From assembly GCA_963799365.1 (NCBI GenBank), contig CAWCWV010000017.1, positions 199,342-263,341 of the forward strand: a stretch of 64,000 nt of DNA, given 5' to 3'. How positions within the stretch are numbered: the stretch's first letter is position 1; every line of letters begins with the position of its first letter. Shown in pieces: positions 1,349-21,896 of this stretch. This DNA comes from an uncultured Flavobacteriaceae bacterium. Lineage in GTDB: Bacteria > Bacteroidota > Bacteroidia > Flavobacteriales > Flavobacteriaceae. The notes beneath the pieces were generated by a model that was not told where the DNA came from, ran no database searches, and saw only the letters and a program-made list of their open reading frames with translations. Position numbers and translations under genes: made by a program.

Positions 1349-1360
1349 TGACGAATGTCA
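1349..1360 (-). promoter_or_regulatory. FNR/FixK/CRP-like palindromic box TGACGAATGTCA
   Basis: Intergenic between the pdxH stop (1378) and the ccoS start (1298). On the minus strand it lies 23 nt upstream of TATTTTTA (a -7-like element). Confidence 0.65.
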
Positions 1361-1377
1361 GTTTTGGGATTTTTGTA

Positions 1378-1968
1378 TTATTCAGGAAGAAAGAAAATTG
1401 TTTTTTCCCAATCGGGATACTCGCGTAAAACGTATGTAGTAAAAGTAATCGCATTTTCAGAAGATTCTTCAAACACTATCTTAACAGGTCTCACCATATA
1501 CCCACCCCATTGCGCTGGTTTTTCTATGAATACATTTGCAAACAAATCTTCAAAGTGAGCATAACGTTCCTCTAGTGCTGCTCTAGATGCTATGAGTTCG
1601 CTTTGCTGCGATGCCCAAGCACTCAATTGACTCCCGCGAGGGCGAGCTTCAAAATAAGCTTCAGATTGTGCTTTGCTTATTTTTTCTGCTGTTCCTAAAA
1701 TCGTGATACGTTTGTTTGCTTTTTCCCACGGAAATGAAAGGCAAACTTTATTGTTTTTGGCTATCGCTTTTCCTTTTGAACTGCTGTACTGTGTATAGAA
1801 GATAAAGCCTTCCCAAGTATATTGCTTTAAAAGAACCATTCTCGTTTTAGGAAAGCCATCTGTTTCTAAAGTCGTTAATGCGATTGCATTGACTTCAATT
1901 TCTGGAAATTTGTCTTTTACGACACAAAACCATTGATGAAAATGCTGTATAGGATTTGGATCATTCAT
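1378..1968 (-). CDS. pdxH: pyridoxamine 5'-phosphate oxidase
   Basis: Aligns from memory to E. coli PdxH (RMVLLK..GFIFYT, EARPRGSQLSAWASQQS, WGGY). The ORF track extends to 1989, but the likely start is MNDPNP at 1968, which overlaps the ccoI stop by 8 nt. Confidence 0.8.
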   Translation of the reverse strand: MNDPNPIQHFHQWFCVVKDKFPEIEVNAIALTTLETDGFPKTRMVLLKQYTWEGFIFYTQYSSSKGKAIAKNNKVCLSFPWEKANKRITILGTAEKISKAQSEAYFEARPRGSQLSAWASQQSELIASRAALEERYAHFEDLFANVFIEKPAQWGGYMVRPVKIVFEESSENAITFTTYVLREYPDWEKTIFFLPE

Positions 1969-4366
1969 CCTCCATAGTTGAACCTGCATACCATCGCACC
2001 ATGAGCGTTGTAAACACTACAATACTAATAGAACTCAATGGCATTAAAATTGCCGCCACCACAGGCTTTAAATGGCCTGTTACTGCAAATGCAAGCCCGA
2101 TAACGTTGTAACAAAGTGAAAAAAGAAAACTCCATTTAATGATTTGAACACCTCTTTTTGATGCATCTAGGATATTAGGAATCGCACTAAATACACTAGC
2201 ATCCAAAATCCCATCACAGGCGGGTGTAAAAACGTTTGTGTTTTCTGAAATAGCAATACCTACATTACTTTGTTTTAAAGCTCCAGCATCATTAAGACCG
2301 TCACCAACCATTAATACAGTCTTGCCTTTTTCCTGTAACCTTTTAATAAACTGTAGTTTGTGTTCTGGCTTCTGATTGAAATAAAATTCTGTTCCTTCAG
2401 GTAGTAACTGAGACAGGTTTTCCAGCTCGCCATCATTATCTCCAGAGAGTATGATAAGGCTGTAGTTTTTTGCTACCCTTCGCATTGTATCTGTAATCCC
2501 TATTCGGTACGTATTATTAAATACATAACGGCCTTTATAGGTTTCGTTACTACTAATGTGAATGGCAGTTTGTTGTTTATTATTTAACAACGGATTTTCT
2601 GAATCTGCGTCCGTGACAAAATTATAGGAGCCTATTTTAATTTTATTTTGGGCTGTCCTGGCTGAAATACCTTTCCCAATAATCTCCTCATAATCATCTA
2701 ACAAGTCGATATTATTTTTTTGAAGCAATTTATACAATGCCCTACTTAATGGATGATTTGAACCTCGTAATGAAGATGATAAGAGTGTTGCCTCTTCTTC
2801 GGAAAGTGTTATTCCTTCATAGTTTATATGGTTTTTATGCGTAGCGGTAAGCGTTCCCGTTTTGTCGAATACCAATGTGTCTATCTTTGCCATTTGTTCA
2901 ATAACCGAAGGCTCTTTTAAATAACATTTCCTCTTTCCGAAGAGTCGCAAAACATTACCTAGTGTAAAAGGAGCCGCAAGAGCAATGGCGCATGGACAGG
3001 CAATAATTAATACGGCTGTAAATACGTTGAAAGCCTTTGTTGGATCGTACACAAGCCAAAATAGTGTAGCCAAAAAGGCAATGCTTAACACTGCCACGGT
3101 AAATTGTTTACTAATTCCATCTGTGATCGATTGAAAAGCGCTTTTTTGGGTTTTACTGAAAATTTCGTTACTCCACAACTGGGTGAGGTAGCTTTGTGAA
3201 ACTGGTTTTAAAACTTCAATTTCCAGAACACCACCTTGCTGCTTTCCGCCGGCATATACACTATCTCCAGACAATTTTGATACGGGAACCGCTTCTCCCG
3301 TGACAAAACTATAATCAATAAGTGCATCTCCCTTTAATAGTACTGCATCTACAGGAATAAGTTCGTTATTACGAATTAGCAATCGGTCGCCCCTTTGTAT
3401 GAGATGGACTTCGGTTTGTACTTCGGAATAGGTTCCCTTCTCCTTTTTAACAAGCTGGGTTACTGCCATGGGAAAATAGGACTTGTAATCCCGCTCAAAC
3501 GAAAGATAGGCGTAGGTTTTCTGCTGAAAGAATTTACCGAGCAATAAAAAAAAGATTAAGCCCGTGAGGCTGTCGAAAAACCCTGAACCGGTATCAAAAA
3601 CGATATCCAGGGTACTCCTTATAAATAATACCGAAATACCCAATGCTATAGGCACATCTATATTTAATATCCGAGAACGCAGTCCTTTATAGGCAGAAAT
3701 AAAATAATCCTGTCCCGAATAAAAAACTACAGGAAGTGAAAACGCAAACATTAACCAGCGGAAAATATGTTTAAATTGGTCCAGCCAGAATTCGGTTTCT
3801 TCGAAGTATTCGGGAAAAGAAAGAAACATCACATTTCCGAAAGCAAAACCAGCAACTCCTACTTTATAGATAAGTGTTTTGTTATGGTTTCGTTTTTTGG
3901 GCTGGGCATCGTCTAGAGAAATGTAGGGTTCGTAGCCTATTTTTGACAATAAATGTACCAGCTGTTTTAAATCTACCTTTTCCGATGAAAAAGTAATCCG
4001 TACTGTTTTTTCAGGAAAGTTTACTTGCGACGTATATACGGCAGGGTTTAATTTATTTAAATTTTCAAGTACCCAAATACAAGAGCTGCAATGAATGGAT
4101 GGAATTAAAAAGGAAACCACTTGGGTACCACCTTCATCAAATTCTAATAATTTTTTTGCAATTTCTGGGTTCTCCAGAAAATCGAATTTGGCTTCGCTTG
4201 GTTTGGGAGACGTACCTGGCGTTTTTTCTAAATTGTAATAATGTCCAAGATCGTTGTCATTCAAAATATCATAGACGGTCTTGCAGCCAAAACAGCAGAA
4301 GTTTTTGTCCATGTGTAAAATTAACGCTTCTTCGCAGGGATCCCCGCAATGGTAGCATGATGTCAT
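1961..4366 (-). CDS. ccoI: heavy-metal (copper) translocating P1B-type ATPase, CcoI/FixI type
   Basis: 801 aa with an N-terminal CxxC-rich region (MTSCYHCGDPC, CCFGC), a CPC motif (ACPCAIALAAP), DKTGTLT and GDGLNDAGAL. It sits in a cco gene context. Confidence 0.85.
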   Translation of the reverse strand: MTSCYHCGDPCEEALILHMDKNFCCFGCKTVYDILNDNDLGHYYNLEKTPGTSPKPSEAKFDFLENPEIAKKLLEFDEGGTQVVSFLIPSIHCSSCIWVLENLNKLNPAVYTSQVNFPEKTVRITFSSEKVDLKQLVHLLSKIGYEPYISLDDAQPKKRNHNKTLIYKVGVAGFAFGNVMFLSFPEYFEETEFWLDQFKHIFRWLMFAFSLPVVFYSGQDYFISAYKGLRSRILNIDVPIALGISVLFIRSTLDIVFDTGSGFFDSLTGLIFFLLLGKFFQQKTYAYLSFERDYKSYFPMAVTQLVKKEKGTYSEVQTEVHLIQRGDRLLIRNNELIPVDAVLLKGDALIDYSFVTGEAVPVSKLSGDSVYAGGKQQGGVLEIEVLKPVSQSYLTQLWSNEIFSKTQKSAFQSITDGISKQFTVAVLSIAFLATLFWLVYDPTKAFNVFTAVLIIACPCAIALAAPFTLGNVLRLFGKRKCYLKEPSVIEQMAKIDTLVFDKTGTLTATHKNHINYEGITLSEEEATLLSSSLRGSNHPLSRALYKLLQKNNIDLLDDYEEIIGKGISARTAQNKIKIGSYNFVTDADSENPLLNNKQQTAIHISSNETYKGRYVFNNTYRIGITDTMRRVAKNYSLIILSGDNDGELENLSQLLPEGTEFYFNQKPEHKLQFIKRLQEKGKTVLMVGDGLNDAGALKQSNVGIAISENTNVFTPACDGILDASVFSAIPNILDASKRGVQIIKWSFLFSLCYNVIGLAFAVTGHLKPVVAAILMPLSSISIVVFTTLMVRWYAGSTMEDE

Positions 4367-4428
4367 ACCTATTTAAATTTACTCATTATACCTTTTACAA
4401 AGATTGAAAACGATAAAGATTCAAAAAA

Positions 4429-4440
4429 TGATATTTGTCA
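4429..4440 (-). promoter_or_regulatory. FNR/FixK/CRP-like palindromic box TGATATTTGTCA
   Basis: 63 nt upstream of the ccoI start. On the minus strand it lies 23 nt upstream of AATCTTTG (a -7-like element). Confidence 0.6.
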
Positions 4441-4482
4441 GCTACAGCAAATTACCTCAAAGAAAGTATATTATAAAAGCAC

Positions 4483-4629
4483 TTAGCTATTAAAACGCTT
4501 TTTAGATTCCCGCTCCAAAGCTTCCCTATGGTCTGGATGGGCAATAGAAATAAGCGCTTTTGCCCTTTGTTCCAGTCCTTTTCCAAAAAGATTTACTACT
4601 CCAAATTCTGTCACTACATAATGCACATG
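4483..4629 (-). pseudogene. C-terminal fragment of an acetyl-CoA hydrolase/transferase family gene, cut off by the IS3 insertion
   Basis: Manual translation gives [48 protein letters not shown]. This continues ...VTTTRAH of ORF 6042..7181 exactly once the IS is removed. Confidence 0.85.
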
Positions 4630-4737
4630 TGTATTATACTGAAATAGGTTGACTCTTTTTTAGTTAATATTTCCACGTTCAAAAGATTTTTTTCAGCCGT
4701 TTGGAAGGCAAAAAAATAGTTTGAACTAGGTCTGTTC

Positions 4738-5634
4738 TTAAATCGTTAGTTCAGGTAAATTTACATTATTTTTTCTATAGGATTTGTATTTGATATTTGG
4801 ATTTGAATGGACTTCAGCTGGTTTTCTTAAATCCAGGCTAAAATGGGTTCTTAGATTGTTATAGATATATACGGCTTGCTGCGTCATTTTCTGCGCTAAA
4901 TCCGTGTTTTTAATGGTTTGTTTAAGTCCGTACTCATATTTCAATGTTCTGTTAATTCGTTCTGCCACAGCATTTTCATATGGGTCGTATTGTTCTGTCA
5001 TACTCATTGTAATGCTGTTGTTTTCTGCAAATTTCGTGTACTTTGGATTGCAGTACTGGAACCCTCTGTCAGAATGATGGATCAATTTTTGCTTAGGATA
5101 TTTTCTGTTTTTAATGGCCATAGCGAGCGCATCTGTGCAAAGGGATGTTCTCATATGGTCATCGAGTTTATAGCCCATGATTTGCTTGGAATAGGCGTCT
5201 GTCACAAGTGCTAAATAATTGTGTCCATTTTCAGTTTTGATGTATGTAATATCGCTTACCCATAGCTGTTCTGGACGATTGGGGACTTGGTCTTTTACGA
5301 GGTTCTTATATTTTTTGTACATATGGTTTGAGTTTGTTGTGGTGATATAGTTTTTTGTTTTAGGAACCAGTAGCTTATTAAGTCTTAAGAAGCGATAGAA
5401 CTTATCTCTACCTATCTTAATATCAGCGTTTATGAAGTCTTGCTTTAGTTCAGAATGTAATTTTATTCCACCGGTTTTAGACCCTACTTTTTTACGGTAG
5501 TCCTTGACCATTTTTATTAGTTTTTGATGGTCTATCTGTTGTATTCGTTGGATTTTGAGCCTTTTGTAGTAGGCTTGTTTAGAGATTCCAAGGCACTGAT
5601 AGATCCATTTTCTTTTAAACGGTTTTTCTTTTTT
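4738..5634 (-). CDS. IS3 transposase OrfB (DDE integrase core), probably expressed as an OrfAB fusion by -1 frameshift
   Basis: rve-type motifs are present (WVSDITYI, HHSDRGFQY, YDPYENAVAERIN). The frame is open upstream of the first Met (5511) as far as the A_AAA_AAG heptamer, which reads CTTTTTT on the plus strand at 5628-5634. The -1 frame reads KKEKPFKRKWIYQCLGISKQAYYKRL. Confidence 0.85.
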   Translation of the reverse strand, partial: KKEKPFKRKWIYQCLGISKQAYYKRLKIQRIQQIDHQKLIKMVKDYRKKVGSKTGGIKLHSELKQDFINADIKIGRDKFYRFLRLNKLLVPKTKNYITTTNSNHMYKKYKNLVKDQVPNRPEQLWVSDITYIKTENGHNYLALVTDAYSKQIMGYKLDDHMRTSLCTDALAMAIKNRKYPKQKLIHHSDRGFQYCNPKYTKFAENNSITMSMTEQYDPYENAVAERINRTLKYEYGLKQTIKNTDLAQKMTQQAVYIYNNLRTHFSLDLRKPAEVHSNPNIKYKSYRKNNVNLPELTI

Positions 5635-5990
5635 CGTTCTATCTCTTTCGCGAGTGACTTGGGCAAGGACTTTTTTGACATATCGACGCCTGTAATGAGT
5701 TCCATGTCAGCTATAATATCTTGTTGAAAGTCCTTTACGAACTCAAGCTCTTCAATCTTTTCCTTAAGTTTTTTTATCTCGTCGTTTTTGCTCATACCTG
5801 TGTTTTGTTGTACTAAGGTACTGTATTTTCTCAACCAATAGGTAATGGTGGTTCTAGGGACATCATACTTTTTAGAAGCGAAGTTTGTCGATAGTTGTCC
5901 GTTTAGGATTTGGTCAACGACTAAAAGTTTGGTCTCTAAAGTTGCTTTTTGGTAGCTTTTTTTTAGCCAGTGTTCTTTTTTTGGTTTCAT
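5532..5990 (-). CDS. IS3 transposase OrfA (HTH)
   Basis: 152 aa with an N-terminal HTH (KYDVPRTTITYWLRKY) and a coiled-coil/leucine-zipper-like region. It contains CGA AAA AAG in the zero frame. Confidence 0.85.
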   Translation of the reverse strand: MKPKKEHWLKKSYQKATLETKLLVVDQILNGQLSTNFASKKYDVPRTTITYWLRKYSTLVQQNTGMSKNDEIKKLKEKIEELEFVKDFQQDIIADMELITGVDMSKKSLPKSLAKEIERKKKNRLKENGSISALESLNKPTTKGSKSNEYNR

Positions 5991-6041
5991 AAGTGACTGT
6001 AATTAATTGATTAATTTTTAGTCAACCTATTTCAGGAAAGT

Positions 6042-7181
6042 TCAATGTGCACGTGTCGTAGTAACACTGGCACCCTCTTTCAAAAAAGGAGTGATTTTGG
6101 ATAGTCCTTTATTAGTGACTGAGGGCATTGCTATGATTGGCTTGCCTCCTTTTGAAAGCGATGCACCACGAATAAAATCCATTTGTCCTCCAACCCCTGA
6201 ATATTGATAAGCTCCAATGGAATCTGCACACACCTGCCCTGTAAGATCAATTTCAATAGCACTATTAATAGCGGTTACTTTTGGGTTTTGTCTAATAATG
6301 GCTGTGTCATTGGTGTATCCCGCTTCTTTGAAGTGAAATATAGGATTGTCATCCACAAAATCATACAATTTCTGGGTTCCCATGGCAAAGCAGGTAACGA
6401 TTTTTCCTGTTTTTATTTCTTTATCTTCTCCCGTAATAATTCCGTTTTCAACAAGTGGTAAAATTCCATCGCTGAACATTTCGGTATGAATCCCTAATCG
6501 CTTGTGGTTTGTAAGATTACTTAGCACAGCATTCGGAATATTACCTATGCCCATTTGTAGTGTGGCTCCATCTTCAATAATACCAGCAATGTGTTTGCCA
6601 ATGGTTATCTCGGTTGGGGTTGGGTCGGTTAGGATAGAGGCATGGATTGGGGTATCTATTTCAACACCATAGGTGATCTTACTTACATGTATAATACCGT
6701 CTCCATGGGTTCTTGGCACCCTGGGGTTGATAAGTGCTATTACTTTTTTTGCTGTTTGAATTGCCGGCAAGGTGATGTCTACTGAAACCCCCAAAGAACA
6801 ATACCCATGAGGATCGGGTGGGGAAACCTGAATAAATGCAACATCCAGAGGCAGAATATTTCTTCTAAACAACCAATGAATTTCACTCAAAAATACTGGA
6901 ATATAATCTCCTCTATGCGAGGCAATCCCTTGCCGCACATTATTCCCAACAAAACAACTGCTTAGCTGAAACGCATTCGAGTAGGGTGCCCGGGTATATT
7001 TGGCATCGCCGTGGGTATGAATTTGGATAATTTCTACATTTTCTAATTCTTGATAGCGCTCACATAAAGAATCTATCAATAGATTTGGAGTCATGGCAGC
7101 TCCCTGAAAAAAGATTCGATCATTAGATTTAACTACTGAAACTGCCTCCTGGGGCGTAACTAATTGCAACGATTTTGACAT
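6042..7181 (-). pseudogene. acetyl-CoA hydrolase/transferase family protein (4-hydroxybutyrate CoA-transferase-like), N-terminal 379 codons, truncated by IS3
   Basis: Family-typical GIGNIPNAV and GGQMDF motifs are present. The stop codon TGA is supplied by the IS terminus. The remainder of the gene is at 4483..4629. Confidence 0.8.
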
Positions 7182-8849: not shown

Positions 8850-9287
8850 TTATGATAGTTTTTTTTGTTTGCTATGCTTTAAGAGGTCTGCGAGCATTTT
8901 AAAAATAATCCGCTTGGATTTCTTTACGTCTGCGTGGAAATCCATCATATCCATCATCAGTTTATAATGCGTATCCTTATAGTCCCTTAATTCGTTAGGA
9001 ATAGCTACCTCATCCATTAAAAATTGCAAGTTATTTGCATGATTTTTTAATCTCTTTAGTAAGAGAACTACCCTATTGTTATAGGTATGTAAGGTAGCTC
9101 CTATTGTAGATACCTGTTCGTAAGGTTTTCCATAAATGAGTTCTAATGTTCGGTTTGCTACAATTTCAGAAAGAAATCGTAATTCATCTTTTAAGAATAG
9201 CAATTCAGCTATAGCAATTACAACATCTTCATGTAATCCACTGGTATCAAGCCACTGAATGTATTTTATATGTGTTTTGTTTTTCAT
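8850..9287 (-). CDS. hypothetical protein, predicted all-helical and His-rich
   Basis: 145-aa ORF with no recognisable family. It lies downstream of a box-containing promoter at 9465-9507. Confidence 0.45.
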   Translation of the reverse strand: MKNKTHIKYIQWLDTSGLHEDVVIAIAELLFLKDELRFLSEIVANRTLELIYGKPYEQVSTIGATLHTYNNRVVLLLKRLKNHANNLQFLMDEVAIPNELRDYKDTHYKLMMDMMDFHADVKKSKRIIFKMLADLLKHSKQKKLS

Positions 9288-9495
9288 ATTTCAGGTATTG
9301 AGTAAGGCAGAAAATTATTCTCTTTCTGATAGCTGCTTCTCCAGAAAAATAAACTATCTCAATCCTTTTTTAGAGAATTACAATCTAGCATAGCTTTGAA
9401 TGAGTTGTAGCTTTACTAAAGATAAATGCGTTACTATTTTAAAGATTATTAGTCTTTACAAAAGTAAAAATAAGACACTCTAAAGCATTTGGAAA

Positions 9496-9507
9496 TGACA
9501 TTTGTCA
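9496..9507 (-). promoter_or_regulatory. FNR/FixK/CRP-like palindromic box TGACATTTGTCA
   Basis: On the minus strand it lies 23 nt upstream of TATTTTTA (plus coordinates 9465-9472). This is about 170 nt upstream of the start at 9287. Confidence 0.55.
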
Positions 9508-9903: not shown

Positions 9904-11274
9904 TTAAACTAAAACCTCTGTTACCGTATCTAATTTGGGAATGGTAACTTTCCAACTATACGTATCCTGAATCTTTACCCGAAGTACATCCTGAGCAGTA
10001 GGCTCTCCGTGAATTAAAAAGATATTTTCTGGAATATTTTTAAGATCCTGCAACCAATTTATAATTCCAGCCTGATCTGCGTGTGCCGAAAGACTTTCAA
10101 TATGTTCTACCTTGGCATTAACTGGATAATATTTTCCGAAAAATTTTAGTTCGTGTGCACCTTCTAATAAATGTCGCCCACGAGTACCTTCAGCCTGGTA
10201 TCCCACCATTAAAATAGTTGTATTTGGTTCATCAATTAGCTGTTTTAGGTAGGTTAGTATCCTGCCGCCAGTAACCATTCCACTCCCTGCAATCACTATT
10301 TTGGGTCTTGGATCGTCTATGGTTTCCCAGGTTTCTTTATAGGATTTTATTATATGCATCCTGTTTTTCATTGCGATAAATTCAGCTGGTGGAATTTTAT
10401 GCCAACTGGCGAATCCCTCAAAAATTCCTAGCACATTGGTACCCATAGGACTGTCTATAAAAATTGGAATATTGGGAATACGTCCCTCCTTATATAGTTT
10501 CCAAAGCAGCCACATTAATGTTTGTAATCGTTCTACTGCAAATGAGGGGATAAGTAATGCCCCGCGGTTATGTACTGTAGAATTAATGAGTTCAATAAGT
10601 TTTTCTGAAACACTTGTTGTTGGATGCAATTTGTTTCCATAGGTACTCTCCAGAAACAGATAATCTGCCTGTTGCGGCTTTTCTGGTGGAAATAAAAGTA
10701 AATCCTCTTGTCTTCCAATATCCCCCGAAAAAACAAAGATTTTGCCAAATAATTGTAATTCAATAAACGTGGCTCCTATGATATGTCCATTATATTTAAA
10801 GCGGTATTTGATATGCTCTGAAAGAGAGTGCCAAGTATCTTTTTCAGAAGGTGTAAACATATTGATAGCTTGTTCAGCATCATATATCGTATAAAATGGT
10901 TGTGCAGGATGGTGCTTGCTATAGTTTTCTTCATTAGCCCTTTCTGCATCTTCTTCATTAATCTTGGCACTATCCAATAGAATTATTCTGGTAATTTCCA
11001 ATGTAGGCGCTGTAGCAATAATTTTTCCATTAAATCCCTGCTTTACCAATCTGGGTAAATATCCGGTGTGGTCTAAATGCCCATGAGTGAGCAACACCGT
11101 ATTGATTGATGAAACATTAAATGGAAAATCTTCCCAGTTCTGCTCCCGAAGCTCTTTTAATCCTTGAAACATTCCACAGTCCACAAGGATATTCTGTTCG
11201 GGTGTTTCTAGCAAAAATTTAGAGCCTGTTACAGTTCGGGAAGCACCTAAAAAATGAATTTTTATTGTTCTCAT
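9904..11274 (-). CDS. MBL-fold metallo-hydrolase of the beta-CASP (RNase J/CPSF-like) type
   Basis: HGHLDHTG motif, with later D/H motifs and a C-terminal RNA-specificity-like region (SAHADQ). The ORF track starts at 11310, but the likely start is MRTIKIHFLGA at 11274. Confidence 0.75.
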   Translation of the reverse strand: MRTIKIHFLGASRTVTGSKFLLETPEQNILVDCGMFQGLKELREQNWEDFPFNVSSINTVLLTHGHLDHTGYLPRLVKQGFNGKIIATAPTLEITRIILLDSAKINEEDAERANEENYSKHHPAQPFYTIYDAEQAINMFTPSEKDTWHSLSEHIKYRFKYNGHIIGATFIELQLFGKIFVFSGDIGRQEDLLLFPPEKPQQADYLFLESTYGNKLHPTTSVSEKLIELINSTVHNRGALLIPSFAVERLQTLMWLLWKLYKEGRIPNIPIFIDSPMGTNVLGIFEGFASWHKIPPAEFIAMKNRMHIIKSYKETWETIDDPRPKIVIAGSGMVTGGRILTYLKQLIDEPNTTILMVGYQAEGTRGRHLLEGAHELKFFGKYYPVNAKVEHIESLSAHADQAGIINWLQDLKNIPENIFLIHGEPTAQDVLRVKIQDTYSWKVTIPKLDTVTEVLV

Positions 11275-11281
11275 ATGATTT

Positions 11282-12973: not shown

Positions 12974-13030
12974 CTCGATACATTTTAAGGTTCTTGACAT
13001 AAATGTATGTACTTAACAAAAAAGTAACTA

Positions 13031-13042
13031 TGATAAATGTCA
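13031..13042 (-). promoter_or_regulatory. FNR/FixK/CRP-like palindromic box TGATAAATGTCA
   Basis: 58 nt upstream of the MKKKILIPTDFS start (12973). It lies 23 nt upstream of TACATTTA on the minus strand. Confidence 0.6.
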
Positions 13043-13180: not shown

Positions 13181-14029
13181 TTAAGAACGTTCTAAGTTTT
13201 GAAGAACCAGAAAGGGTATTTTAATTTCCAATCCTACTTTTTCTATCGTGGAGCGGTATAGTATATGTTCAAGATACGAGTGGCGCTGATTTACCATGAC
13301 TAACATATCGAAAGCGGTATCCTGTAGTATTTTATTTATACCCTGTGTAATATCTTTTCCAGGTGCGTTTATCTGAGAAACCAAATGCTCTTCGAAATAA
13401 CTGCTCGCAAAAGCTCTGTTATCTTTTTGCCTGTGAGACAGTTCTTTTGCCTCGGAAATATGAAGAAAATGAACCCTTGTTACAAACCGAGATGCTAACG
13501 CACTTACCAACTTTAACTCCCGGCGTTTAAAAGGAAGCATATAGTCTGAAGGAAACAACATATTTTGAAGTGGGTAGCCATGATAGCTTACCGGAACAGC
13601 AAGAACAGGACATTTTACATATTTAATTACCTGTAAGGTTTGACTCCCAAATGTGACCTCCTCACGGTTGGTTTTACCTTTTGTTCCCATGACCACAATA
13701 GCTGCATTGTGTTTATCTACTAAGTGGTTTACCTCATCTACCAAACTCCCAAAAGAAGCCATAATTTTGAAAGTATGCTTTGGATTTGGGGAAATAGCTA
13801 ACACCTCGGCAATGACTTTTTGAAGGGATCGCTCTGTTGCTACTTCCAGTTTATCCTTAAACTCTTCAAAGAATTCACGATCCATCTCCATAGTATTTTC
13901 ATAAACGTCATCTGCAAATGCATTCATGATTAGAAACTCACTGTTCTCGTATTTAAAAAGCTCCACAGCATACCGAATTGCATTCAATGCTGTTTCAGAA
14001 AAATCGGTTGGAATAATTATCTTTCTCAT
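13181..14029 (-). CDS. universal stress protein (two USP domains)
   Basis: IIIPTDFSETALNAIRYA, VVMGTKG, CPVLAVP and C-terminal IPFLVL motifs. Confidence 0.85.
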   Translation of the reverse strand: MRKIIIPTDFSETALNAIRYAVELFKYENSEFLIMNAFADDVYENTMEMDREFFEEFKDKLEVATERSLQKVIAEVLAISPNPKHTFKIMASFGSLVDEVNHLVDKHNAAIVVMGTKGKTNREEVTFGSQTLQVIKYVKCPVLAVPVSYHGYPLQNMLFPSDYMLPFKRRELKLVSALASRFVTRVHFLHISEAKELSHRQKDNRAFASSYFEEHLVSQINAPGKDITQGINKILQDTAFDMLVMVNQRHSYLEHILYRSTIEKVGLEIKIPFLVLQNLERS

Positions 14030-14083
14030 GGAATATCATTTTAAGAGACAACCAAAGCTATAGTCTTAGCTTGGATTATAAAA

Positions 14084-14095
14084 TGATAAATATCA
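14084..14095 (-). promoter_or_regulatory. FNR/FixK/CRP-like palindromic box TGATAAATATCA
   Basis: 55 nt upstream of the start at 14029. It lies 23 nt upstream of TAGCTTTG on the minus strand. Confidence 0.65.
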
Positions 14096-14138: not shown

Positions 14139-14975
14139 TTATTCGTGTAATACTAAAAATGGAATATGAATATGATAGCTTATTTGTGCTACCTGAGGTC
14201 TGAACAAAATACGCTGAAAGAAGTTAAGGTTTTTTGCAATCATTGCCACCATATCAATTTGCATAGTGTTTACAAAAGATTGCAATGCATTTTCCAGGTT
14301 AGGATTTTCAATCACGTGAAAACTATGGGGAATGCCACGTAAGCGCTCCTTTAAAATCTGCCGATTATTGCTCTGAAAATTATCCAAAGGTTTTTGTGTC
14401 TGGGCAACCCTTAATACTCTTATCGAAGAGTTTGAAACCCTTGATATATTTTGTAAGGTGTCTATCACTTTATACTTATAGCTCATATTGAAATCTGTAG
14501 GGAAGCCAATGGAAAGGGTTTTTTTAAAAGACGCTTTCTCAGGTATTACTAAAATAGAACACTTTACGCGGGTTATAACTGCACCCGCTCTACTCCCCAA
14601 AGTCATTTCTTTTAAACCTGAAGCTCCTTTGGTTCCCATAACCATAAAGTCGATACTATTTTCTAGAATAAAGTTTCGGATACCGTCTATAAAAGGCGCT
14701 TGGATAATAGCGTGTTTAAATGTATGCTGGGGGTTTGAATATTGTGTATTGACTTTTCGCATCCAGTCATCCATATCGGAATTTAAATGATCCGGTACTT
14801 CTTTTTTTATGGAAAGACCTGCGTAATGTAAGTTATCATCACTGCCTTTGTGAAATGAAATGTCGATATGTAAAAAATGAAATGTGGTTTTTTCATTATT
14901 AAAAAAACGCAATGCATACGCTGTTGCATTCCAGGCATTCTGAGAAAAATCGGTCGGGATCAAAAATTGCTGCAT
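14139..14975 (-). CDS. universal stress protein (two USP domains)
   Basis: FLIPTDFSQNAWNATAYA, MVMGTKGASG and C-terminal IPFLVLHE motifs. Confidence 0.85.
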   Translation of the reverse strand: MQQFLIPTDFSQNAWNATAYALRFFNNEKTTFHFLHIDISFHKGSDDNLHYAGLSIKKEVPDHLNSDMDDWMRKVNTQYSNPQHTFKHAIIQAPFIDGIRNFILENSIDFMVMGTKGASGLKEMTLGSRAGAVITRVKCSILVIPEKASFKKTLSIGFPTDFNMSYKYKVIDTLQNISRVSNSSIRVLRVAQTQKPLDNFQSNNRQILKERLRGIPHSFHVIENPNLENALQSFVNTMQIDMVAMIAKNLNFFQRILFRPQVAQISYHIHIPFLVLHE

Positions 14976-15024
14976 AGTACTTTTTCTATAGTCAAAAGTA
15001 TCAATGCCTCTTAAAATGGAATAT

Positions 15025-15036
15025 GATAAAAATCAG
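15025..15036 (-). promoter_or_regulatory. FNR/FixK/CRP-like palindromic box TGATAAAAATCA
   Basis: 50 nt upstream of the start at 14975. It lies 23 nt upstream of TACTTTTG. It also sits only 11 nt downstream of the regulator gene's stop codon. Confidence 0.65.
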
Positions 15037-15046: not shown

Positions 15047-16099
15047 TTATTCTATATTTTCTAAGGAATTAAGTTCAAGGATTTTAATATTTCTACCTTC
15101 AATCGCTATAAGTCCTTTTTTCTTAAATTCTGAAAGCGTACGTATTAAACTTTCTGTAGCGATCCCAGCAACACTTGCCAAATCACTTCGGGAAATTTTA
15201 ATAGCTTCATCTGGTTTTTTATTGAGAACACGGGCAAACTGCAAGATTGTCTGAGCTGTTTTTTTCCTTACAGAGCTATACGCCATTTGTAATAACTGCT
15301 CTTTTATTTCGGTGATATTATCGGTAAGAACATTCATTAATTCTAGGGAAACATTCTGATTTTTTCCAAGAATATTTTTTAACTCACTTTTCAAAATTCC
15401 TGATACCGTTACGTCTTCAATGGCTATAGCAGTTTCTTCATATCGTATGTTATGGTTAAATGATGTAAATCCTAAAAAACTGTCTGTTTGGTATAGATTG
15501 GTGATTAACTCTTTGCCATCATCTTCCGTTCGGGAACACTTTACAATCCCTTTTGTGATAAGATAAACATAATTTGAGTGAGCACCCCTTCTGTAAATAA
15601 CTTCCCCTTTGGCAAAAGTTCTCATCGTTCCCGTATCGTCAAATAAGTTTTTGAGTTCATTGAGGCTTCTTATATCCTCTTCAGGATCTAATTTTTTTTT
15701 TGAGGTGGTTTCCAGTGCTTTTGAAAGAATTTCGGCTTTGGCCAATCTACTTTCTATAGCGCTCATTAATTCTTCCTCTTCAAATGGTTTGGTAAGGTAG
15801 TCGTCTGCCCCTAAATCCATTCCTTTTCGAATTTCTTTATGTTCTGTTCTTGCAGATAAAAAAATAAATGGGATATGTGTAGTGGAAGGCTCTAATGAAA
15901 CTGCCTCTAAAACTCCATAACCATCTACCTCGGGCATCATGATATCGCAAACAATAATATCAGGGAGGTGTTTCTTGGCTACTTCAATCCCAATTTTGCC
16001 ATTTGGGGCTGTAAACACTCTGTAATTAGCAAGTTCTAACAACTCTGCCGTATTTTCACGCAATGCAAGATCGTCTTCAATTAAAAGGATGGTTTTCAT
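15047..16099 (-). CDS. hybrid response regulator: CheY-like receiver fused to a Crp/Fnr-type cNMP-binding domain and C-terminal HTH
   Basis: Receiver: KTILLIEDD...PDIIVCDIMMPEVDG...LSA...KP. Effector domain: beta-roll (GEVIYRRGAHSNYVYLITKGIVK) plus HTH (ISRSDLASVAGIATESLIRTLSEFKKKGLI) with the E-x3-R recognition pattern seen in FNR/FixK/CRP. There is no FNR-type Cys cluster. The likely start is MKTILL at 16099; the ORF track gives 16168. Confidence 0.8.
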   Translation of the reverse strand: MKTILLIEDDLALRENTAELLELANYRVFTAPNGKIGIEVAKKHLPDIIVCDIMMPEVDGYGVLEAVSLEPSTTHIPFIFLSARTEHKEIRKGMDLGADDYLTKPFEEEELMSAIESRLAKAEILSKALETTSKKKLDPEEDIRSLNELKNLFDDTGTMRTFAKGEVIYRRGAHSNYVYLITKGIVKCSRTEDDGKELITNLYQTDSFLGFTSFNHNIRYEETAIAIEDVTVSGILKSELKNILGKNQNVSLELMNVLTDNITEIKEQLLQMAYSSVRKKTAQTILQFARVLNKKPDEAIKISRSDLASVAGIATESLIRTLSEFKKKGLIAIEGRNIKILELNSLENIE

Positions 16100-17719: not shown

Positions 17720-17755
17720 ATACCAAAAGTACCAAATATAATTTTGAATACTAAC

Positions 17756-17767
17756 TGATAAATATCA
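17756..17767. promoter_or_regulatory. FNR/FixK/CRP-like palindromic box TGATAAATATCA shared by divergent promoters
   Basis: On the plus strand it lies 23 nt upstream of TATTTTTA (17791-17798), facing the start at 17820. On the minus strand it lies 24 nt upstream of TACTTTTG (17724-17731), facing the kinase start at 17719. Confidence 0.65.
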
Positions 17768-17819
17768 TAGTCTATCTATTATCCCAACCCTATTTTTACA
17801 ACATAAATTAAACTGTACC

Positions 17820-18227
17820 ATGAGTATCATACATACCTCCGAAATTGTTTTTTACCAGAAGTTAGGCGAGTTATTTTATGCAGTAGCAGCGTCAGACAAG
17901 GTTGTTCATGAAGCAGAATATAAAGTTTTAACCACTCTGGTAGAGAAAGAATGGAAACAAATGGATGCGTATCAGGACCAATTTGGAGCTGATGCTGCAT
18001 ACCAGATATCAATTGTATTTGAATGGTTTGATTATGAACGTATGGATGCTAATGATTGTTTTGAGAGTTTCAGTGAATACTATAAGGAGCATAAAAAATT
18101 ATTCACTGGGCAAAGGAAAAAACTTGTTCTAAGTACGGTTAAACAAATTGCGAACGCCTTCGCAGGTAGTAATAAAAGTGAACTTATGATGAGTGCCAAA
18201 CTTCAATTACTTTTTAATAAAAATTAA
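17820..18227 (+). CDS. TerB-like (tellurite-resistance TerB family) protein
   Basis: 135 aa. The helical pattern FYQKLGELFYAVAASDKVVHEAEYKVL resembles TerB-family proteins annotated in flavobacteria (from memory). Confidence 0.45.
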   Translation: MSIIHTSEIVFYQKLGELFYAVAASDKVVHEAEYKVLTTLVEKEWKQMDAYQDQFGADAAYQISIVFEWFDYERMDANDCFESFSEYYKEHKKLFTGQRKKLVLSTVKQIANAFAGSNKSELMMSAKLQLLFNKN

Positions 18228-18237
18228 ACCTTTACTT

Positions 18238-19131
18238 ATGAAATATATCATGATACTATTGATGACAATGTTCCTTTTTTCTTGTAAAAATGATAAAACA
18301 CAATCTTCAGAAAATGGTGAGCCCGAAACTGATGTAGTAAAAACCATGCCTTTTGAAGAGGTATTACCCTTTGATTCTACCTATACTAATAATGATACAG
18401 AATTGAAAAAAACAAATTCTATTGTTATAAAAAGACAAAGTTTAATTGATAAGGGAGACGATAAATCTGAATTGCAGGAACTGGTCCTCCAAAAGAAATT
18501 TAAGAAGGATGAAGATTTATACCTAATCGATTATACCTATCCCTACCTAAATGAAACCATAAAAGCTTCCTATCATAATTTTAACGAATATCTGGAAAAA
18601 ACGTACATGGATATTGCAGGAGTAGAGGCCAGTATTTTAGAAAGTAAAGAACTTATTTGCGACACCTTACGCATAAATAGGTTTAAAGAAAAACGCTTTG
18701 TGGATTATAAAATTTACAACCTGAACAAAAATATTATCAGCGTGCTTTTTTATAAAGAAAACTACTATGCTGGCACCTTGCACCCATCCTATACGTTCGA
18801 TTGTTTAAATTTTGATCTGGACCGCTCGGTATTCATGAATTATGAAGACTTCTTCAATGAGGGAAGTGAAGAAGAAATGACATCCATTTTAAATGAAGTG
18901 CTCACTGAAAAAATAAATAGTGGTGATATCTATTATGATTGCTGGGAAATTTCCTTCGACGATTTTTTTGAGTACAAGAATAATTTTGTTGTTGATGACA
19001 GCAAAGTGGAGTATTATTTTGACGACTGTGTCATCTGCCCATCGTATACAGGAACATTTTCTGTGGAAATCCCTTTAGAACGTTTACTACCCATTCTAAG
19101 AAAATACAAATTAAATCCATTTATACTATAA
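18238..19131 (+). CDS. lipoprotein, DUF3298/DUF4163-like (RsiV-type fold)
   Basis: Lipobox (MTMFLFSC) after the start MKYIMILL at 18238. YPYLNE...HPSYTFDCLNFDL resembles the DUF4163/DUF3298 pattern. The family call is tentative. Confidence 0.45.
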   Translation: MKYIMILLMTMFLFSCKNDKTQSSENGEPETDVVKTMPFEEVLPFDSTYTNNDTELKKTNSIVIKRQSLIDKGDDKSELQELVLQKKFKKDEDLYLIDYTYPYLNETIKASYHNFNEYLEKTYMDIAGVEASILESKELICDTLRINRFKEKRFVDYKIYNLNKNIISVLFYKENYYAGTLHPSYTFDCLNFDLDRSVFMNYEDFFNEGSEEEMTSILNEVLTEKINSGDIYYDCWEISFDDFFEYKNNFVVDDSKVEYYFDDCVICPSYTGTFSVEIPLERLLPILRKYKLNPFIL

Positions 19132-19132
19132 G

Positions 19133-19777
19133 ATGAAGATCTATGCCTACATATATCTATTTGGGTATGCATTGCTTATAGTCACGCTATTCGTACTTCC
19201 TTTTTTATCTTTTGAAGGATATGCACTTGTACGCAACACTATTGGCGAACTGGGAGCGCAAAAAGTATCGGGTAATTGGTTGGCCAATACATCCATTATG
19301 GTGCTCAGCATTGCTATTGCGCTATTAGCAACAAAGCAATTACGAATCTATTGGAAACAGCTTACGGCGCTCTATTTTTTCTGTATTTCTTTTTTCTACA
19401 CAGGTATTTATCAATTGGCTGGCCTTGATGCACACACATATATTTTCAATTATACTAATGATGCTTTACACGTTCTTTTTTCTATAATTACAGGATTTGC
19501 TTTCTGTGTTTTTTGTGTTTTCTTTATCTTTATTGTAAAAGAAAAAAAACACAAATGGCAAACAGCTGGTGCGTTCTTAGTAGCATTGTTAGCGCCTTTG
19601 CTCATGGAGTACTTTCCAGAATATAGAGGGCTTTGGCAGCGTATTCTTTTTCTGGGGATCTTTGGCTGGTTGTTTTATGCATTAACTTCGTACCCCTTGA
19701 AATGGCGCAGTAGTACTGCCTCAAGAATGAAGCGTTTTGAAGAAATTAGAAAACATATACATACAGATGAAAAGTAA
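19133..19777 (+). CDS. integral membrane protein (about 6 TM; DUF998-like)
   Basis: The hydrophobic helix pattern supports a membrane protein. The family assignment is weak. Confidence 0.4.
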
Positions 19778-20063
19778 CTTTAAAACTATTATTAATTCAG
19801 AAACACCAGTCTTAGTAGATTTTTTTGCAGAATGGTGCGGGCCTTGCAAGGCACTAGCCCCTATACTTAAACAAGTAAAAGAAGAAATGGGCGATGCTGT
19901 GAAAATAGTAAAGATTGATATCGATAAAAACCAAGCACTTGCCAATCAGTTTCAGGTTAGGGGCGTTCCCACGATGCTATTATTCAAAAATGGAAATCTG
20001 AAATGGCGACAGTCCGGAGTGCTTCAAAAAAACGAAATTATTCAAATTATAAACAGTAAATAG
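19767..20063 (+). CDS. trxA: thioredoxin
   Basis: WCGPCK active site and [13 protein letters not shown]. The likely start is the ATG at 19767, which overlaps the upstream stop (ATGAAAAGTAA). Confidence 0.85.
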
Positions 20064-20141: not shown

Positions 20142-20597
20142 ATGATTAAAAAATTAGACGATAAAGAAAAAATGCTCTTACTTAGTTCAAACTACATAGG
20201 TAGTTTAGGCTATATATTTCAGAACAAATCTTTTGTGGTGCCCATTACCTATTTCTACAACCAAGAAAAAAATAACATCATCTGTTATTCAGCCAACGGC
20301 CATAAAATTAATGCATTGAGGAAAAACAATTCGGTATCTCTTTCTGTAACCGATATCGACTCCGTCAACGACTGGAAATCGGTTTTGGTTCAAGGTACCT
20401 ATAAAGAAGTGGAGGGCAGTACCGCCAGGGCCTTGTTACATCAGTTTTCATTAGGGGTAAAGGATCTTATTCTGCGAAAAGAACTTCGTGACTTAGATTT
20501 TATTAGTCAGTTTTCCAGCAAGGTGTATAAAGATGATATACCAATAGTATTCACCATAGAAATTAATGAGATAACTGGAAGGATGCGAACGTTTTAG
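20142..20597 (+). CDS. pyridoxamine 5'-phosphate oxidase family (FMN-binding split-barrel) protein
   Basis: 151 aa. The pattern NYIGSLGYIFQNKSFVVPITYFY...NSVSLSV...WKSVLVQGTYKEV is typical of general-stress PPOX-family proteins. Confidence 0.6.
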   Translation: MIKKLDDKEKMLLLSSNYIGSLGYIFQNKSFVVPITYFYNQEKNNIICYSANGHKINALRKNNSVSLSVTDIDSVNDWKSVLVQGTYKEVEGSTARALLHQFSLGVKDLILRKELRDLDFISQFSSKVYKDDIPIVFTIEINEITGRMRTF

Positions 20598-20684: not shown

Positions 20685-21518
20685 TTACATTTTAAAGGTC
20701 ATAATAGGTAAATCACTATGATTCACAATCCCCTCGCCTACTTTTTCTGAAAAGAAATGAGCCAAGCCGCGTCTGCCATGAGTAGGAATCACGACCAAAT
20801 CTGCTTCCACCTCGTTGCTGAAGCTATAAATCCCGTGTTCTAATCTATAATCGCAATAATAGGCTGTATTGTCATAGACATCAGTATTATCCACGCCACT
20901 TTGCATCATAAATGTAAAGGCACGTTCCTGCATTTGTTGATTGCTTAGAAATTTTTCTGGTGTATTGATAAAAACCACTTGAAACTCTGCACCAATTTTT
21001 TCAAAGAAATTCCAGGCATTTTTAAAGGGTTCTACATAATCCATATTAAAGTCACACGCAAAGACAACCTTATCCATTTTAAAATTATTCATTCTATTTT
21101 TTACCACAAGTACAGGTATTTCTGAAGTACGAACTACTTTTTCGGTATTGGAGCCAACAAACACTTCTTTGAGACCACTGGCCCCGTGAGAACCCATCAC
21201 AATCAAATCGGCTTTAAAATCTTTGGCTACATTATTGATCTCATGAAATTCTTTGTAGTTCTGAACAGTCGTTTCAACTGTTATTCCTTTTAGATAGTCT
21301 TTGTCTAAAAAGTCACTAAAACGTTTTTCGGCCAGCTTCATATAATAAATGGCTTCAAACATCTCTTGAGATTCATCTCTCGTTAGTACAGCTTCAGAAA
21401 GCCCCATCATATGTAAGGCAATTAATGAAGCATTGTTTTTTCTAGCTATGGTGGCTGCCACTTCTAAAGCATAATCTGAATGTTCAGAAAAATCGATGGG
21501 TATAAGTATCTTTTTCAT
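20685..21518 (-). CDS. universal stress protein (two USP domains)
   Basis: ILIPIDFSEHSDYALEVA, IVMGSHGASG, IPVLVV and C-terminal LPIMTFK motifs. Confidence 0.85.
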   Translation of the reverse strand: MKKILIPIDFSEHSDYALEVAATIARKNNASLIALHMMGLSEAVLTRDESQEMFEAIYYMKLAEKRFSDFLDKDYLKGITVETTVQNYKEFHEINNVAKDFKADLIVMGSHGASGLKEVFVGSNTEKVVRTSEIPVLVVKNRMNNFKMDKVVFACDFNMDYVEPFKNAWNFFEKIGAEFQVVFINTPEKFLSNQQMQERAFTFMMQSGVDNTDVYDNTAYYCDYRLEHGIYSFSNEVEADLVVIPTHGRRGLAHFFSEKVGEGIVNHSDLPIMTFKM

Positions 21519-21830
21519 TTAAGAGGATATATTTTGTTTTGTAAATTTTGCTTTCCGCTTTTTTAATTGCTTTTCAATGTCACTAATGGTCTCTTTAACT
21601 GCCATTTCAAAGTTTTTTTCATTGGAAGTTGCAAAAATCTTCGGTCCTGGAAGACTCACTTCCATTTCGCAGATATGACCATTTTCGCTTGGGTCGTTTT
21701 CTATTTTGAAGAATACATCAATCCGTACGATCCAATCATATTTCTTTTCAATTTTTTGAAGCTTTTTGGTAACATACGCAGACATACTTTCGCTAGTCTT
21801 CATTTTTACATATTGAATTTGTATCGTCAT
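21519..21830 (-). CDS. hpf: ribosome hibernation promoting factor / RaiA family
   Basis: 103 aa with the short HPF pattern (YVTKKLQKIEKKY...EVSLPGPKIFATSNEKNFEMAV...KQLKKRK). Its stop abuts the start of the downstream USP gene. Confidence 0.75.
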   Translation of the reverse strand: MTIQIQYVKMKTSESMSAYVTKKLQKIEKKYDWIVRIDVFFKIENDPSENGHICEMEVSLPGPKIFATSNEKNFEMAVKETISDIEKQLKKRKAKFTKQNISS

Positions 21831-21884
21831 AACTTTTTATTAAAATTCTACCTCAAAAGTAAGAACCAGGGAAAGAGTAAACTA

Positions 21885-21896
21885 TGATAAATATCA
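21885..21896 (-). promoter_or_regulatory. FNR/FixK/CRP-like palindromic box TGATAAATATCA
   Basis: 55 nt upstream of the hpf start. It lies 23 nt upstream of TACTTTTG on the minus strand. Confidence 0.65.

Follow-up and report, generated by a model that had tools for sequence, protein, structure and literature searches.

Introduction

In the FixL-FixJ-FixK cascade of rhizobia and Caulobacter, a haem-PAS kinase acts through a FixJ (REC-LuxR) step and a transcriptional relay, and the last component of the cascade is a CRP/FNR-family protein that lacks an Fe-S cluster and binds TGA-N6-TCA sites at -41.5 before fixNOQP/ccoNOQP, fixGHIS/ccoGHIS and hemN. In Escherichia coli, FNR uses class II sites at the same position and carries an N-terminal cysteine cluster. 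In Mycobacterium tuberculosis, DosS/DosT-DosR (DevRS) couples haem kinases to a response regulator and a hypoxic non-growing programme. Here we analyzed a 64-kb stretch of DNA from an uncultured marine Flavobacteriaceae bacterium (contig CAWCWV010000017.1, positions 199,342 to 263,341; the whole stretch is called the window below), in which eight intergenic 12-bp palindromes (boxes) lie at a fixed distance from a -7 promoter element. With a probability of roughly 0.85, the boxes serve a low-oxygen regulon as class II activator sites. In this organism they are probably acted on by REC-Crp, a receiver (REC) domain fused to a CRP/FNR module, which is encoded in the window beside a FixL-like kinase.

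Comparison with FixL-FixJ-FixK revealed a predicted haem-PAS kinase with the proximal His and distal Arg kept, a CRP/FNR-family effector without Fe-S cluster, and the same type of site at the same position. The locus differs from the cascade in having no FixJ step or transcriptional relay: REC is fused to the CRP/FNR module, and therefore phosphorylation, not synthesis, would control the effector. Furthermore, the flanks of the box are C/A...T and not T...A, which matches an Ile in place of Ser before the helix Arg, the promoters are Bacteroidota -7/-33 sigma-A promoters, and the regulon is dominated by genes for universal stress proteins (USPs) and by hpf. By analogy, the kinase and REC-Crp would in effect be FixL-FixJ-FixK collapsed into two proteins. 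E. coli FNR and its class II promoters share with this locus the site at -41.5, the 23 bp from core to -10/-7 element, the helix Glu and Arg, and similar low-oxygen targets, whereas the window regulator has no N-terminal cysteine cluster and sensing would be delegated to the kinase; the FNR cysteines are kept by a separate flavobacterial paralogue. The DosR regulon is rich in USPs and also includes alpha-crystallin/Hsp20, PPOX/nitroreductase-type proteins and a factor for ribosome hibernation, some of its genes being grouped near the regulator. However, the haem domains of DosS/DosT are GAF and not PAS domains, the output of DosR is of LuxR/NarL type, and its DNA motif is unrelated. Any relationship to the DosR regulon would be one of functional convergence. 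Site sharing by two CRP/FNR paralogues with different inputs is known for FnrN and FixK of Rhizobium leguminosarum (PMC7888657), for which a flavobacterial locus with both paralogues (L014, see below) offers a parallel. Anr and Dnr of Pseudomonas share sites in the same manner. In contrast to both pairs, the second paralogue here is a phospho-accepting response regulator, and sharing is suggested by identical recognition helices alone.

Flavobacteriaceae are generally regarded as strict aerobes that live on particles and at the ocean surface. Marine and freshwater members are major degraders of algal and particulate organic matter, and their habitats, which include marine snow, biofilms, sediments and infected fish tissue, have steep oxygen gradients. 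No description of oxygen sensing in Flavobacteriaceae was found in the literature, and one transcriptome study covering hypoxia was found (Guerin et al., 2021; PMC9723704).

Boxes and promoter geometry in the window

The 12-bp pattern TGAYNNNNRTCA, i.e. TGAY-N4-RTCA, was searched over both strands of the window, which revealed nine copies against 3.7 +/- 1.8 in dinucleotide shuffles. Eight of the nine fall within 1349-21896, and the re-scan found all eight between genes, in agreement with the first-pass annotation of this DNA; the ninth, at 53130, is located inside a coding region and has no -7 partner. The spacer is the gap between the final box base and a [T/A]AnnTTT[G/A] octamer. Re-counting on both strands gave exactly 23 nt at 1349, 4429, 9496, 13031, 14084, 15024, 17756 (plus side) and 21885, while towards the kinase the 17756 box gave 24 nt; these are the same distances as had been reported for eight promoters and for the kinase promoter. 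Seven of the reported box coordinates also stood, while the sixth was off by one (15024-15035, not 15025-15036). The -7 elements were correctly listed as TACTTTTG (three times), TATTTTTA (three times), TAGCTTTG, TACATTTA and AATCTTTG. With the -7-like pattern at 0.4-0.55% of positions, at least eight of nine boxes would have it at exactly 23 nt by chance with a probability of about 1e-15 to 1e-16. A standard sigma-70 promoter/terminator scan was uninformative in this organism (59 sites vs 57 expected). The boxes and their promoters are as follows.

Box 1: 1349..1360, minus strand, cTGACATTCGTCAt; -7 element TATTTTTA at 1318-1325; promoter of ccoS and ccoN
Box 2: 4429..4440, minus strand, TGACAAATATCA; degenerate -7 element AATCTTTG at 4398-4405; promoter of ccoI and pdxH
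Box 3: 9496..9507, minus strand, cTGACAAATGTCAt; -7 element TATTTTTA at 9465-9472; precedes the 145-aa gene 8850-9287
Box 4: 13031..13042, minus strand, cTGACATTTATCAt; -7 element TACATTTA at 13000-13007; promoter of a USP operon
Box 5: 14084..14095, minus strand, cTGATATTTATCAt; -7 element TAGCTTTG at 14053-14060; promoter of the tandem-domain USP gene 13181-14029
Box 6: 15024..15035, minus strand, cTGATTTTTATCAt; -7 element TACTTTTG at 14993-15000; promoter of the USP gene 14139-14975
Box 7: 17756..17767, plus strand, cTGATAAATATCAt; -7 element TATTTTTA at 17791-17798, 23 nt away; on the minus side TACTTTTG at 17724-17731, 24 nt away, abutting the kinase start codon (17719)
Box 8: 21885..21896, minus strand, cTGATATTTATCAt; -7 element TACTTTTG at 21854-21861; promoter of hpf and a USP gene

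Conservation across Flavobacteriaceae

For comparison, 80 species-representative loci of the regulator were collected with 10 kb on either side (1.55 Mb in total). The closest public relative is Rasiella sp. SM2506 (NZ_CP193934.1), where synteny extends over 8-22 kb of the window and the boxes are retained. The 80 loci contain 565 boxes, against about 115 expected. The distance from box to TAnnTTT[GA] forms a single spike, with 420 of the 565 at 23 nt and the next most frequent values at 24 nt (18) and 12 nt (14), so the fixed spacing, for which a check in related genomes had been proposed, recurs there. The profile of 422 unique promoters (loci L001-L080 and the window) reads A-A-[C 64%/A 30%]-TGA-Y-a-W-W-T-R-TCA-T(97%)-W. 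The flanks of the box, C/A-TGA...TCA-T, are unlike the T-TGA...TCA-A of FNR and FixK, and are asymmetric relative to the promoter. The -33 element is weak, because G is found at -33 in just 25% of the 422 promoters, and a strong -33 TTG is absent. The T after TCA (97%) is seen on the promoter-proximal side only and stands at about -35, where a -33 TTTG would begin; this near-invariant base may be what remains of a -33 TTTG, namely its first T.

Strict composite promoters (box, spacer and -7 element) were scored within 300 nt upstream of orthologues of the window genes. They were found before ccoS in 17/17 cases, ccoN in 15/16, the 135-aa gene next to box 7 in 58/64, hpf in 23/27 and about 62% of USP genes, while operon-internal genes had none, as expected. 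Further genes lying first downstream encode Hsp20, DUF1706/DinB-like, HMA and DUF2267 proteins, cytochromes c, peroxiredoxin and hemN. Along the loci, composite promoters peak immediately on both flanks of the kinase-regulator operon (64 loci). A division of TGAC...GTCA and TGAT...ATCA boxes into two regulons was considered and rejected for want of a clean split. The proximal half-site is GTCA in 16 of 18 ccoS promoters against 40% of USP promoters, which is a bias and not a partition.

Additionally, public metagenome contigs were scanned for TGAYAWWTRTCAT-N22-TANNTTTR, a search not anchored on the regulator, and at least 120 contigs matched. Among the matches listed, the first downstream genes were ccoS (at least 13), USP (at least 8), hpf (at least 2), a hemN-like radical SAM gene (at least 5), and a 76-aa 4Fe-4S ferredoxin or 2-oxoacid:ferredoxin oxidoreductase (OFOR; at least 5). 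The same matches include PFOR, pyruvate formate-lyase (PFL), the small subunit of NiFe-hydrogenase, HemG-type flavodoxin, D-2-hydroxyacid dehydrogenase, Pta, PPDK and several cytochromes c, together with a tail of apparently random small open reading frames (ORFs). This is the content expected of a low-oxygen regulon. On the unrelated contigs L092, L093 and L199, the first gene behind composite promoters encodes a 45-47-aa membrane peptide (MN.L.LPLYSHDNGTFIMIGVFALVIIGL...), which matched no Pfam family.

Published start sites and hypoxia data

For Flavobacterium psychrophilum, Guerin et al. (2021; PMC9723704) provide mapped start sites and condition-dependent array data, and they located the sigma-A element TAnnTTTG at -12..-5. 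In that study, oxygen limitation strongly induced the cbb3 operon, which belongs to co-expression cluster C52 together with hemN and a monohaem cytochrome c, and likewise induced peroxiredoxin, thioredoxins and haem-synthesis genes; neither a regulator nor a motif was named for the hypoxia response. At least two promoters of its start-site table carry the box: that of THC0290_0041 (cytochrome c551/c552, cluster C52) reads TGAtgatatttatcat-N22-TACTTTTGAA and that of THC0290_1233 (peroxiredoxin) reads tgataaatatcac-N22-TACATTTA. Both consist of tgataWWtatca, 23 nt and a -7 element, TACTTTTG or TACATTTA. Given the 23-nt spacer and TAnnTTTG at -12..-5, the box therefore occupies -47..-36, with its centre at -41.5; these positions assume that the 61-nt strings of the table run from -50 to +10, which reproduces the -12..-5 of the paper. 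The predicted distance of about 41 nt between start sites and box centres is thus borne out at these two mapped promoters of a related genus.

The candidate regulator and the sensor kinase

Two adjacent genes of the window encode the proposed signalling pair.

15047..16099, minus strand: regulator REC-Crp, 350 aa, with a receiver domain, then a CRP/FNR-type beta-barrel, then a winged helix-turn-helix
16211..17719, minus strand: histidine kinase, 502 aa, with PAS1 (about 12-132, FixL/DosP-like), a second PAS, HisKA and HATPase_c

The gene 15047-16099, which the first-pass annotation put forward as the candidate regulator, is the sole CRP/FNR gene in the window, and the candidacy was strengthened by its identity as a REC-CRP/FNR fusion beside a FixL-like haem-PAS kinase. 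The protein matches Pfam families REC (PF00072, 4.4e-27), cNMP_binding (PF00027, 4.6e-16) and HTH_Crp_2 (PF13545, 3.2e-12), the last two in its C-terminal two thirds and with scores above the gathering cut-offs. The REC residues E8, D9, D10, D52, S82, K104 and P105 are invariant in 42 sequences, and the recognition helix T-E-S-L-I-R-T is invariant in 119 homologues. Within this helix, the invariant E316 and R320 were aligned with E181/R185 of E. coli CRP and E209/R213 of E. coli FNR (TESLIR vs RETVGR and VETISR). The residue before the Arg is Ile where FNR and FixK have Ser. The cysteine set of FNR has no counterpart: the protein begins with a receiver domain, Ser stands at the C122 position, and the only invariant Cys, C51, lies within the REC domain. 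The protein also falls outside FixK, scoring 65.5 bits against a cut-off of 300 for the model NF050806, over residues 151-347 only, and having 350 aa against about 215-230 aa for FixK. None of the NCBIfam equivalogs covers the REC-Crp architecture.

In an AlphaFold 2 model, REC is followed by a long helix and, after a disordered linker, by the barrel; a second long helix, placed like the dimerisation (C) helix of CRP, comes before the winged helix-turn-helix. The top Foldseek matches were CAP, GlxR, MtbCRP, NtcA and FixK2 (E about 1e-15), all stand-alone chains of about 200-230 aa, and no solved chain with the REC-CRP/FNR architecture was returned by the Foldseek/PDB fold search. Across Flavobacteriaceae the regulator is 65-91% identical, with homologues in Rasiella (89%), Ulvibacter, Aquimarina, Dokdonia, Maribacter, Arenibacter, Aequorivita and Kordia, which the databases annotate merely as 'response regulator'. 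A phmmer search with the regulator as query against 1.84 billion 50%-identity representatives gave 1,687 representatives at E<=1e-30, a count that may include receiver-domain-only matches. Of the best 150 representatives, 139 were full length (36-61% identity), most of them with the helix E-[ST]-x-I-R; for this reason, REC-CRP/FNR proteins appear to be a large family and not a one-off fusion.

The kinase has no predicted membrane part and is soluble. The best PDB matches of its PAS1 are the haem domains of FixL (1d06, 3e-14) and DosP. Among orthologues, the haem-proximal His (H194 of RmFixL) is kept in 77/77 and the distal Arg (R214) in 71/77, while the equivalents of FixL R200 and I209 are not conserved and an invariant Met is found near the distal pocket. 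This Met lies two residues from the position of the distal Met ligand of DosP. With 98.5 bits against a cut-off of 850, the kinase lies outside the FixL equivalog NF041777. It adjoins the regulator in 78 of the 80 loci, with a gap of about 20 nt in relatives and 111 nt in the window. The FixL-like PAS is present in all kinases, the second PAS is absent from half. Two forms can be recognised (e.g. L005-L007 vs L001-L004), one with two PAS domains and about 500 aa, to which the window kinase belongs, and one of about 410 aa with a coiled-coil linker in place of PAS2.

A box is present upstream of the kinase in 59 of 75 loci, and in 43 of these 59 its phasing, at 23 nt, suits the divergent gene. 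The distance towards the kinase varies (24, 25, 20 and 12 nt), and a strict composite promoter precedes the kinase in 0/32 cases. The 24-nt kinase promoter proposed in the first-pass annotation is therefore present in the window and not conserved beyond it, which leaves positive autoregulation unsupported. The -7-like element on this side (17724-17731) ends 5 nt before the kinase ATG, as it also does in Rasiella and some Aquimarina loci; if this element is used, the kinase-regulator mRNA would be leaderless.

An FNR-like paralogue and the IS3 slot

Metagenome contigs also revealed a stand-alone CRP/FNR family of 225 aa (L083:7874-8548, L109, L096, L127, L152, L160 and L014:3689-4327, among others; proteins P0133-P0252). 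Its conserved cysteines are C4, C7, C53 and C106, of which C4, C7 and C106 align with C20, C23 and C122 of E. coli FNR, and its helix G-T-A-T-E-S-x-I-R is the same as that of REC-Crp. The box is thus best understood as a site read by one flavobacterial subfamily, ATESxIR, which would have two ways of sensing. In six contigs the FNR-like gene is divergent from ccoI with a box between them and adjoins the ccoS box, followed by a box-driven USP gene. As a rule the FNR-like gene diverges from ccoI, and it often has its own box at 23 nt; for this reason the arrangement suggests autoregulation. On four contigs with REC-Crp, USP and hpf genes are box-driven. One island, in Spongiimicrobium (L014), holds both regulators in the order ccoN-ccoS-ccoI, FNR-like gene, USP, acetyl-CoA hydrolase, 135-aa gene, kinase, REC-Crp and seven USPs. 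A different FNR-like protein with N-terminal Cys, encoded behind a composite promoter (L102), was dropped as a general rival, since it has just 12 homologues.

The FNR-like gene is absent from the window, where an insertion element is found instead.

4738..5990, minus strand: IS3-family element, with orfA at 5532-5990 and orfB at 4738-5511 (Pfam rve, HTH_psq)

This element fills the slot of the FNR-like and USP genes between ccoI and acetyl-CoA hydrolase (window 4441-6045 vs L014:3545-8322, L083, L127, L152 and L160). Moreover, the plus side of the 4429 box has no -7 element in the window, while in other Flavobacteriia this box is shared with the divergent FNR-like gene. The occupied slot and the missing -7 element together suggest that this lineage has lost the FNR-like gene from here by deletion or displacement.

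Proposed circuit and alternative explanations

We propose that a dimeric CRP/FNR-type activator would bind the boxes at -41.5 of sigma-A promoters with a good -7 and a poor -33 element, that is, at class II, activator-dependent promoters. By analogy with FixL, loss of O2 from the haem would let the kinase autophosphorylate and pass the phosphate to Asp52. The phosphorylated REC domains would then dimerise and render the CRP-like module active, REC taking the role of the [4Fe-4S] N-terminus of FNR, and the REC-Crp dimer would bind C/A-TGAY-N4-RTCA-T and recruit RNA polymerase. One output would be high-affinity respiration and its assembly (ccoS-ccoNO..., ccoI-pdxH). Another, dormancy-like, would comprise four USPs, hpf, thioredoxin, the PPOX-class protein, the ATP-cone nuclease and the beta-CASP RNase, and a third would consist of conserved proteins without assigned function. 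In relatives, genes for hemN, Hsp20, cytochromes c, PFL, PFOR/OFOR, hydrogenase and lactate dehydrogenase stand behind the same promoter type. The first-pass reading of the boxes as FNR/CRP/FixK-type class II sites near -41 in a low-oxygen regulon gained support from the spacing in the 80 loci, the promoters of orthologues, the genes found in metagenomes and the published start sites. The sites with their spacing and conservation, the target genes, the domain architectures and the conserved residues are shown directly, and published data from a related genus show where the box lies relative to mapped start sites and that hypoxia induces the gene classes. The identity of the binding protein, haem binding, the direction of the O2 response, and activation over repression are inferred.

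Several points weigh against this proposal. As far as we could find, the literature holds no binding, haem or expression experiment on the kinase/REC-Crp pair. The AlphaFold 2 model is of moderate quality (pLDDT 77, pTM 0.49) and is silent on how REC would control the CRP module. The kinase-regulator operon itself has no conserved class II arrangement. The start-site evidence comes from F. psychrophilum, which may lack REC-Crp. Haem-PAS domains can also report NO, CO or redox state, and USP and hpf genes respond to general growth arrest too. Lastly, the FNR-like family is abundant in Flavobacteriaceae (Algibacter, Flavivirga, Pontimicrobium, Seonamhaeicola and others), Algibacter has both this family and REC-Crp, the Spongiimicrobium island combines the two, and a copy outside the window could bind some or all of the sites, above all those of the cco genes. 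Because a paralogue with the same recognition helix exists in the family, the assignment of all eight sites to REC-Crp is likely and not exclusive.

The paralogue may be taken further as an explanation in its own right, in which the sites would be occupied by the standalone cysteine-bearing protein, a probable [4Fe-4S] direct O2 sensor encoded elsewhere in the genome, with REC-Crp sharing the sites or controlling a subset such as the USP and hpf genes. The identical helix, the three cysteines aligned with FNR out of four conserved, the abundance of the family in genera that include the REC-Crp-bearing Algibacter, the six contigs with a box between the gene and ccoI, the joint occurrence in L014, and the preference of ccoS promoters for GTCA are all consistent with it. 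However, the gene is absent from a window that holds both the cco and the USP clusters, and its slot is taken by IS3; an FNR-like gene lies within 10 kb in just 1 of 17 REC-Crp loci that include ccoS; the composite promoters cluster tightly at the kinase/REC-Crp operon in 64 loci; and the half-site bias is a tendency without a partition. We consider this explanation unlikely. A signal other than oxygen limitation, namely NO, CO, redox state or a general growth-arrest/stationary programme as the USP, hpf and Hsp20 content might indicate, is improbable in our judgement. DosP and some FixL relatives do bind several diatomic gases. The R200 and I209 equivalents are not conserved and the invariant Met is close to the distal pocket. 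In addition, uspA of F. psychrophilum is also induced in transition and stationary phase (PMC9723704). Nevertheless, the cbb3 oxidase and its assembly, O2-independent hemN, HemG-type oxidase, PFL, PFOR and hydrogenase are hallmarks of low oxygen, and in the arrays cbb3, hemN, cytochrome c, peroxiredoxin and thioredoxin were induced by oxygen deprivation (PMC9723704). It is very hard to credit, finally, that the boxes are repressor operators from which the regulator blocks RNA polymerase in air and departs at low O2. A box at -47..-36 abuts or overlaps the -33 region and could occlude the promoter, but occlusion needs no single-bp phasing, yet 420 of 565 boxes stand at exactly 23 nt; the -33 element is weak, as is typical of activator-dependent promoters; and the geometry is that of E. 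coli class II FNR/CRP promoters at -41.5.

Extending the activator reading, two O2 sensors might run a dedicated hypoxia island in parallel through one box, the FNR-like [4Fe-4S] protein for cbb3 and the haem kinase with REC-Crp for a DosR-like dormancy programme (USPs, hpf, Hsp20 and nucleases), a proposal for which we see even odds. It would include REC-Crp as FixJ and FixK in a single protein, REC standing in for the cluster-binding N-terminus of FNR, within a large, unstudied family of phosphorylation-controlled CRP/FNR factors, a component to which the same balance applies.

Textbook knowledge covers the palindrome class, the class II geometry and haem-PAS kinases. What appears to be undescribed is a FixL-like kinase coupled directly to a receiver-CRP/FNR fusion, an FNR-like paralogue with the same helix, the modified box, and a conserved hypoxia island in Flavobacteriaceae. 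No published description was found in the full-text literature, in which an early response-regulator census may still mention the domain combination. Among the regulators described, RgzAB of F. johnsoniae (bioRxiv 2026) is an unrelated GAF/Hpt hybrid system and the two-component system of Riemerella RAYM is of OmpR/PhoR type. The PNA-microbiome CRP/FNR paper treated Flavobacteriales homologues as MalR-like, and the F. columnare genome paper named neither FNR nor Crp. The finding offers a testable circuit, made up of a box with single-bp geometry, a candidate haem kinase, a regulator of unstudied architecture, a probable Fe-S paralogue and a predicted regulon. The composite pattern is specific enough for annotating low-oxygen genes in metagenomes, and the REC-CRP/FNR fusion is a natural experiment in which CRP/FNR dimers would be switched by phosphorylation instead of a ligand or cluster.

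Genes behind the boxes

The genes downstream of boxes 1, 2, 4, 7 (plus side) and 8 are listed below.

1-1047: ccoN, partial (COX1), behind box 1
1050-1298: ccoS (TIGR00847), behind box 1
1378-1989: pdxH, behind box 2
1961-4366: ccoI (P1B ATPase), behind box 2
9904-11310: beta-CASP metallo-beta-lactamase (MBL) protein, third gene of the box-4 operon
11282-12112: ATP-cone/Mrr_cat protein, second gene of the box-4 operon
12371-13000: USP, first gene of the box-4 operon
17820-18227: 135-aa protein, behind box 7
18193-19131: DUF3298 protein, behind box 7
19133-19777: DUF998 protein, behind box 7
19737-20063: trxA, behind box 7
20142-20597: PPOX-class protein, possibly also under the box-7 promoter
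20685-21518: USP, behind box 8
21519-21830: hpf (Ribosomal_S30AE), behind box 8

Pfam and NCBIfam agree with the labels previously given to ccoN, ccoS, ccoI, pdxH, the four USPs, hpf, trxA and the PPOX-class gene. For the genes labelled ATP-cone nuclease, MBL, kinase and regulator they give ATP-cone+Mrr_cat, beta-CASP MBL, PAS-HisKA-HATPase and REC+cNMP_binding+HTH_Crp_2, respectively. The label 'terB-like' for 17820-18227 is unsupported, as this protein has no Pfam or NCBIfam match even at E<1.

At box 3, an overlapping TACTTTTG is found 6 nt beyond the -7 element TATTTTTA. Between this promoter and the 145-aa gene there is a leader of about 170 nt (9288-9465), while most leaders in the regulon have about 20-25 nt. 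It contains no convincing small ORF, and an Rfam scan of positions 1-24000, this leader included, returned no RNA families. Homologues of the 145-aa protein sit behind composite promoters in other genomes too. Box 6 lies between the stop codon of the regulator gene and the USP gene 14139-14975.

The first USP of the box-4 operon (12371-13000) has 209 aa, against 277-282 aa in its three paralogues, and is followed by a 74-aa ORF in another frame. It may be a frameshifted tandem USP; a frameshift joining 12121-12345 to this gene could not be confirmed. Since the annotated ATG and the -7 element overlap, translation probably starts further in, with MKKKILIPTDF at about 12973. The other two genes of the operon (window 9904-12112) encode nucleic-acid enzymes, one an ATP-cone fused to an Mrr-type nuclease fold and the other a beta-CASP/RMMBL ribonuclease-like protein, and in 17-23 of the 80 loci orthologues of them are again found close to the regulator.

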